Part shown: positions 24,432-47,810 of the stretch, piece after piece
Position numbering within the stretch: position 1 is the stretch's first letter
Layout of the letters: each line of letters opens with the position of its first letter
Origin: Tubiluchus corallicola
Taxonomy: Eukaryota > Animalia > Priapulida
Direction of reading: 5' to 3'
Length of the DNA stretch: 64,000 nucleotides
Assembly (NCBI GenBank): GCA_030141605.1
Contig: JAQGDQ010000057.1
Location: 558,001-622,000, forward strand
Notes under the pieces: model-generated
Seen by the model: only the letters and a program-made list of their open reading frames with translations
What the model was told of the DNA's origin: nothing
The model's database searches: none
Translations under genes and position numbers: made by a program

Positions 24432-47810
<23,379 letters not shown>

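Follow-up and report, generated by a model that had tools for sequence, protein, structure and literature searches.

The window analysed here is the whole 64,000-nucleotide stretch of Tubiluchus corallicola contig JAQGDQ010000057.1 (positions 558,001 to 622,000). Its minus strand carries a microexon and six downstream exons of a CPEB gene, which join into a single open frame of 308 residues plus a stop (end 24432). All acceptors in this exon chain are AG and all internal donors are GT. The features are listed below, with support from contigs of a sequencing run, X2, that is described further on.

47850..47854, minus strand: candidate branch point CTAAC at −44 to −40, inferred from sequence, with one AG between it and the acceptor
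47811..47836, minus strand: acceptor region with U-rich tract, two UGC motifs (−9, −5) and AG; AG-free stretch of 26 nt, from sequence
47787..47810, minus strand: microexon, 24 nt, phase 1-1, ARTYGRRR, from sequence; 23/24 bases identical in a spliced X2 contig
47781..47786, minus strand: donor GTAAGC, from sequence
33024..33194, minus strand: next exon, 171 nt, GKSPFF linker with conserved Ser and start of RRM1; spliced to 30135 in X2, with an RRM_7 match that is below the curated cut-off for this short piece
30046..30135, minus strand: CPEB exon, RRM1, 90 nt; frame and X2 contigs
28096..28214, minus strand: CPEB exon, RRM1, 119 nt; open frame
27104..27218, minus strand: CPEB exon, RRM1-RRM2, 115 nt; frame and X2 contigs
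26133..26314, minus strand: CPEB exon, RRM2, 182 nt; frame and X2 contigs
24432..24659, minus strand: last coding exon, CPEB ZZ domain and stop; PF16366 (E 2e-20) and X2 contigs

Read along the minus strand, 47820-47781 gives the acceptor TTGCATGCAG, then the 24-nt exon 47810-47787, then GTAAGC. An earlier note on this DNA had described an isolated phase 1-1 exon with AG/GTAAGC borders, which we confirm on this strand; the 14.6 kb that it gave to the next exon measures 14,592 nt, and that exon begins at 33194, preceded by TTGCAG. With split codons included, the microexon encodes ARTYGRRR and keeps the frame into the GKSPFF linker, as had also been claimed. It contributes four arginines where the disordered region ends, some 45 residues ahead of RRM1. 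A 9-residue motif matched at 9/9 positions once in the six frames of the window (next best 5/9), and matches did not exceed 5 in 20/20 Markov simulations. A degenerate exon and splice-site pattern, itself drawn up from the window's exon and its relatives, had one match in the window and none in 100 shuffles. Within the exon that follows the microexon, a second AG lies 7 nt inside (33188-33196, minus strand); it is out of frame in the window, and Penaeus models start two residues shorter at the matching place.

Two other genes were recognised nearby. Downstream of CPEB, and likewise on the minus strand, comes the start of a MED14 gene (about 7938 to 978), with one exon matching PF08638. A TRC8/RNF139 RING ligase occupies one long open frame on the plus strand (15930-17513; Pfam TRC8_N and RING). 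This frame is 66% identical to its Priapulus caudatus counterpart, and the next named matches reach at most 59% over most of its length. In a tree of 22 rows (the window and 21 of 120 listed matches, with no other scalidophoran groups by name), the window clusters with P. caudatus and a pair of unnamed proteins, with support of 100/100. On this one gene, a priapulid other than P. caudatus is the likely source of the DNA.

Two sequencing runs, X1 and X2, match the window, and neither is on record as RNA. X2 shares the species label; X1 may be the source of the window itself and is left out of the support. Contigs of X2 differ from the window at ~3% of coding bases and lack four of the five introns downstream, each removed at its predicted sites, so they derive from spliced RNA. 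One 407-nt contig, also spliced at 30135/33024, covers 33196-33024 and then runs on for 157 letters off the aligned stretch. Thirty of these letters are made up of 8 bases from the end of another exon and then 22 microexon bases, in which a single Thr codon differs synonymously; the remaining two bases of the microexon, AG, are those matched at 33196-33195. The microexon is included in mRNA and joined to 33194. This junction, read from the contig's loose end and not from a listed joint, is the one from 47787 to 33194 that the earlier note had named as its check, and it is present with 23/24 bases identical and one synonymous change. The evidence for inclusion is one contig from one run of unlabelled tissue, assembled as contigs that drop rare forms; no skipped form was seen among these same X2 contigs. 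Neither tblastn nor a search with the 8-base end (3 near matches) found a convincing upstream CPEB exon in the window, so the intron upstream of the microexon is probably longer than 16 kb. About 1 kb before the microexon, a long fold-back element (about 48740-49130) has inverted arms around TAA/ATT microsatellites and is probably a mobile-element remnant.

The RRM-ZZ part of the protein, which has a PF16366 match, is 94-95% identical over 261 residues to vertebrate CPEB2, CPEB3 and CPEB4 alike, and the gene is therefore of the CPEB2/3/4 (Orb2) type. Judged by its sequence, the host gene is a single-copy-type pro-orthologue of these three and not CPEB4 specifically. All three vertebrate paralogues carry the 24-nt exon, according to passages of PMC11711090 and supplement rows of PMC8797185. 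The description of a vertebrate CPEB4 microexon in an invertebrate CPEB gene thus stands for the exon, but its CPEB4-specific label does not.

The microexon peptide is identical at 8/8 residues to that of the human CPEB4 exon, whose sequence is printed in a passage of 10.1101/2023.03.19.532587. In 12/30 protein clusters, a sample that is not unbiased since a subset was mostly picked because the peptide was already visible, we found same-species pairs that differ by eight residues at the microexon site. These pairs come from 16 species: five spiders (in two paralogues), Tachypleus, Schistocerca, Penaeus, two Octopus, Lineus, Ptychodera, Glandiceps, Clavelina, Symsagittifera and Myxine, which we take to represent six phyla. 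Public examples, all automatic annotations with the eight-residue difference at the same site, are Octopus bimaculoides XP_052828706/707, Ptychodera flava XP_070539951/952, Schistocerca gregaria XP_049864695/696 and Symsagittifera XP_063724715/716. Compared with the window peptide, identity is 8/8 in human CPEB4 and hagfish, 7/8 in acorn worms, octopus and spiders, 6/8 in horseshoe crab and locust, and 4/8 in Lineus, Clavelina and the acoel; 9/12 listed peptides share six to eight residues. Phase 1 is forced by the junction residues in Ptychodera, Glandiceps and Symsagittifera and allowed in the other 7/10 cases tested. Outside arthropods and vertebrates, this evidence consists mostly of automatic protein models and not of genomic DNA. 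The exon very probably descends from the bilaterian ancestor, a well-supported conclusion from these comparisons; the age proposed in the earlier note is supported, with length, position, phase and peptide common across bilaterians. Its remark that gene predictors would probably miss the exon was overstated, as public models of 15 invertebrate species list forms with and without it.

Not every relative fits this pattern. All 3 Tubulanus models carry the insert, giving no pair, and an unnamed protein (P0422) and a mite have diverged basic stretches with no isoform pair. The members read had no insert in Strongylocentrotus, Diadema, Batillaria, two bivalves, a mayfly, a beetle, a barnacle, three obscura-group Drosophila, Oikopleura, a tardigrade, Xenia, Mnemiopsis and three unnamed singletons; tiny exons are often missed, and absence from automatic models is weak evidence of loss. 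In the Drosophila models the flanking motif is also absent, and the fly exon tables of PMC8797185 contain no orb2 entry. Occurrences of orb2 in the fly eMIC supplement were set aside, all 14 being orthologue names in mouse GO rows. As to an origin before the bilaterians, 3 Xenia and 3 Mnemiopsis models show no insert, in a linker too diverged for absence to be called. No priapulid isoform pair was found among the public models consulted, a set in which the Priapulus caudatus CPEB model did not come up.

Several models differ just upstream of the microexon. Penaeus (P0584/P0411/P0585) and spider P0005 have an optional 17-residue segment directly before it, the length of the 51-nt vertebrate CPEB2 exon at that place (zebrafish event DreEX0003079), with little sequence likeness. 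This two-cassette layout, of 17-residue segment and microexon, may also be old. A 51-nt phase-1 exon was sought in the window, and the one pattern match lay on the wrong strand, at chance level. In addition, a panda CPEB3 isoform (X4; P0112) seems to read through the acceptor into LHA-ARSYGRRRG, residues that the window's intron end would also give, which hints at identical acceptor bases in mammals.

A metagenome scan for the exon returned 25 loci, of which 21 GC-rich loci were dropped as chance, two were confirmed as CPEB by a neighbouring exon (L009, fish cpeb4-like, and L016, arthropod-like) and two AT-rich loci (L001, L011) remained unconfirmed. Like the window, L009 and L016 have a 24-nt phase 1-1 exon directly after CATGCAG, five of whose seven bases (TGCAG) were imposed by the search pattern. 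We do not rely on a Fisher test of CATGCAG (4/4 versus 2/21), which was post hoc on non-independent rows. At L016:1-130, the microexon is still flanked by intron sequence on either side (55 nt downstream) and the remaining coding region is uninterrupted; this locus is either a partly spliced transcript or an intron-poor gene.

Inclusion of the microexon places the arginine-rich ARTYGRRR immediately ahead of the RNA-binding domains in a translation regulator of CPEB2/3/4 type and, we propose, would complete a motif for kinase recognition at the serine downstream of it. The junction that includes the exon is R-R-R-G-K-S-P; skipping would leave that serine with no arginine at −3 or −5. Inclusion creates RxRxxS in 13/17 pairs and skipping does so in 0/17, and a serine is present at +2 in 151/156 proteins, a set dominated by vertebrates. 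The kinase motif is missing, though the exon is kept, in Lineus, Clavelina and Symsagittifera, with Penaeus as an additional exception. In exon-containing forms of mouse CPEB3, PKA and CaMKII phosphorylate S419/S420, and both kinases preferred the second serine, S420 (passages of PMC4767366). In the invertebrate proteins, the residue matching S420 seems to be the proline. PKA and CaMKII are disfavoured by a proline at +1, which would point to a proline-directed kinase such as DYRK or CLK. The same passages of PMC4767366 report a PKA mass shift on an exon-lacking CPEB3 peptide as well, and, in PMC11711090, phosphorylation did not control dissolution of neuronal CPEB4 condensates.

Alternatively, the same ancestral exon may supply arginines by which the disordered region adjusts its condensate or RNA interactions, with no kinase site involved. 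This close rival is possible, if rather doubtful. Three or four basic residues are present in 12/12 listed peptides, including those that lack the serine motif, and the arginines of human CPEB4 exon 4 stabilise condensates by binding a His cluster, which keeps them reversible (passages of PMC11711090). This cluster, however, is not seen in the invertebrate proteins scored. Among 24 proteins, classed by hand into one hagfish row, four jawed-vertebrate rows and a remainder that contains Xenia, a stretch of 24 residues holds 9-10 His in bird CPEB4 (two rows) and skate CPEB2, as against 2-5 in 19/19 bilaterian-invertebrate rows and in Xenia; hagfish has 5 and catshark CPEB3 has 3. These scores come from relatives, the N-terminal region of the T. 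corallicola protein lying outside the window. Because the cluster is missing from the invertebrate proteins checked, the case for an ancient His-cluster condensate mechanism is weakened, and such antiquity should not be assumed. The earlier suggestion of an ancient microexon switch on a condensate-forming regulator is supported as to the age of the exon, but weakened as to the condensate mechanism. We favour the kinase-site switch as the older role because inclusion creates RxRxxS in 13/17 pairs and the His cluster is absent in invertebrates; as the main ancestral role it is a plausible candidate, somewhat short of an even chance.

We further propose that neurons would favour inclusion of the microexon and that some cells would skip it. 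Supplement rows of PMC8797185 list the mouse Cpeb2 and Cpeb4 24-nt exons as eMIC-dependent and the Cpeb3 exon as neural, and those of PMC12626424 give zebrafish cpeb4 inclusion as 88% in neural tissue, below 18% in ten other tissues and 100% in endocrine pancreas. The eMIC code, as described in passages of PMC8797185, comprises UGC near the acceptor, a pyrimidine tract, a CUAAY branch point and a long AG-free zone. Of these, the window shows two UGC motifs, a U-rich tract and the candidate CTAAC; its AG-free stretch is 26 nt, in contrast to the long zone of fly eMIC exons. The two UGC motifs overlap one UGCAUG; this element is not conserved in the four loci left from the metagenome scan, so we make no case for regulation by Rbfox. 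Neural, Srrm234/eMIC-driven inclusion in T. corallicola is probable, and the microexon is very likely skipped in some of its cells. It would be unlikely, by comparison, for the ancestral exon to be constitutive in the priapulid or regulated in a non-neural tissue such as muscle or gonad. The sole contig seen includes the microexon, as do all 3 Tubulanus models, and splicing programs are reported to be mostly rewired between phyla (a passage of PMC8797185). Against this, skipped forms are annotated in 15 invertebrate species, and the acceptor has UGC motifs and last seven bases that match the fish cpeb4 acceptor. Taken as a whole, the preferred explanation, a bilaterian-ancestral exon that is neuron-favoured, skipped in some cells and completes a kinase site, is reasonably likely.

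Independent origin at a hotspot in several lineages is strongly disfavoured and has very little probability. It has been reported as common for neural exons to arise repeatedly in the same genes (passages of 10.64898/2026.09.05.749416 and PMC8797185), the acoel, tunicate and Lineus peptides match at only 4/8 residues, and the sea urchin, gastropod, bivalve, mayfly, beetle, barnacle and Drosophila models read have no insert. Such convergence would nevertheless have to reproduce length, position and phase identically, with six to eight of eight residues common to priapulid, octopus, spiders, locust, acorn worms and vertebrates, and absence from automatic models says little for tiny exons. That the 24 nt are a chance intronic look-alike, left unspliced, is next to impossible: no point in its support was found, and splicing into an X2 contig with a synonymous change, the motif simulations (at most 5/9 in 20/20) and the shuffles (0/100) all stand against it.

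The exon is already known in vertebrates, and its invertebrate forms are already inside public gene models. We found no statement of invertebrate conservation in the literature searched, including passages of PMC8011179, PMC9166367, PMC9465852, PMC8379844, PMC6292497 and PMC12992808, and no paper that pairs the CPEB4 microexon with the terms bilaterian or octopus; Torres-Mendez 2019 may contain such a statement. Four positional matches between fly and mouse neural microexons are given in PMC8797185, none of them in CPEB. Under strict rules, only the microexons of APBB1/2/3 (6 nt) and MADD (9 nt) are called bilaterian-ancestral in the main text of 10.64898/2026.09.05.749416, which names neither CPEB nor orb2 and whose supplements may list the exon. 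A bolder proposal, speculative as a whole, is that the CPEB4 microexon might be a third bilaterian-ancestral neural microexon, shared from acoels and priapulids to humans and missed by fly-centred surveys as Drosophila orb2 lost it; its original job would have been a splice-controlled kinase site, and the anti-aggregation role with the His cluster would have been added later, in jawed vertebrates. An autism-linked exon whose peptide is unchanged between priapulid and human would lengthen the short list of neural microexons shared by bilaterians. In invertebrates the exon is retained, and for the most part the serine too, without the His cluster; this makes the two proposed functions separable, and with octopus, locust, spider or acorn-worm proteins a kinase site could be tested directly against a condensate sticker.

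The closest known system is microexon 4 of human and mouse CPEB4 (24 nt, MmuEX0012543; passages of PMC11711090), which the window's exon resembles in length, in peptide (8/8) and in its place before RRM1. A UGC-bearing acceptor is likewise common to the window and the fish cpeb4 locus L009. The two exons differ in their host, here an invertebrate pro-orthologue, and in the residues that follow, KSP in the window and QSS in CPEB4; the CPEB4 His cluster is absent from invertebrate relatives of the window's protein. The 24-nt exons of CPEB2 and CPEB3 (B-region; MmuEX0012537, MmuEX0012540; passages of PMC4767366) are the same exon in paralogues and supply basic residues of the kinase site, but these vertebrate proteins have two serines, the second preferred, whereas in the invertebrate form a single serine precedes a proline. 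Like the APBB1/2/3 and MADD microexons, the CPEB exon is small, in frame and, on our comparisons, probably bilaterian-ancestral; those were called from tissue RNA-seq of 20 species, whereas the CPEB exon is placed by sequence comparison.
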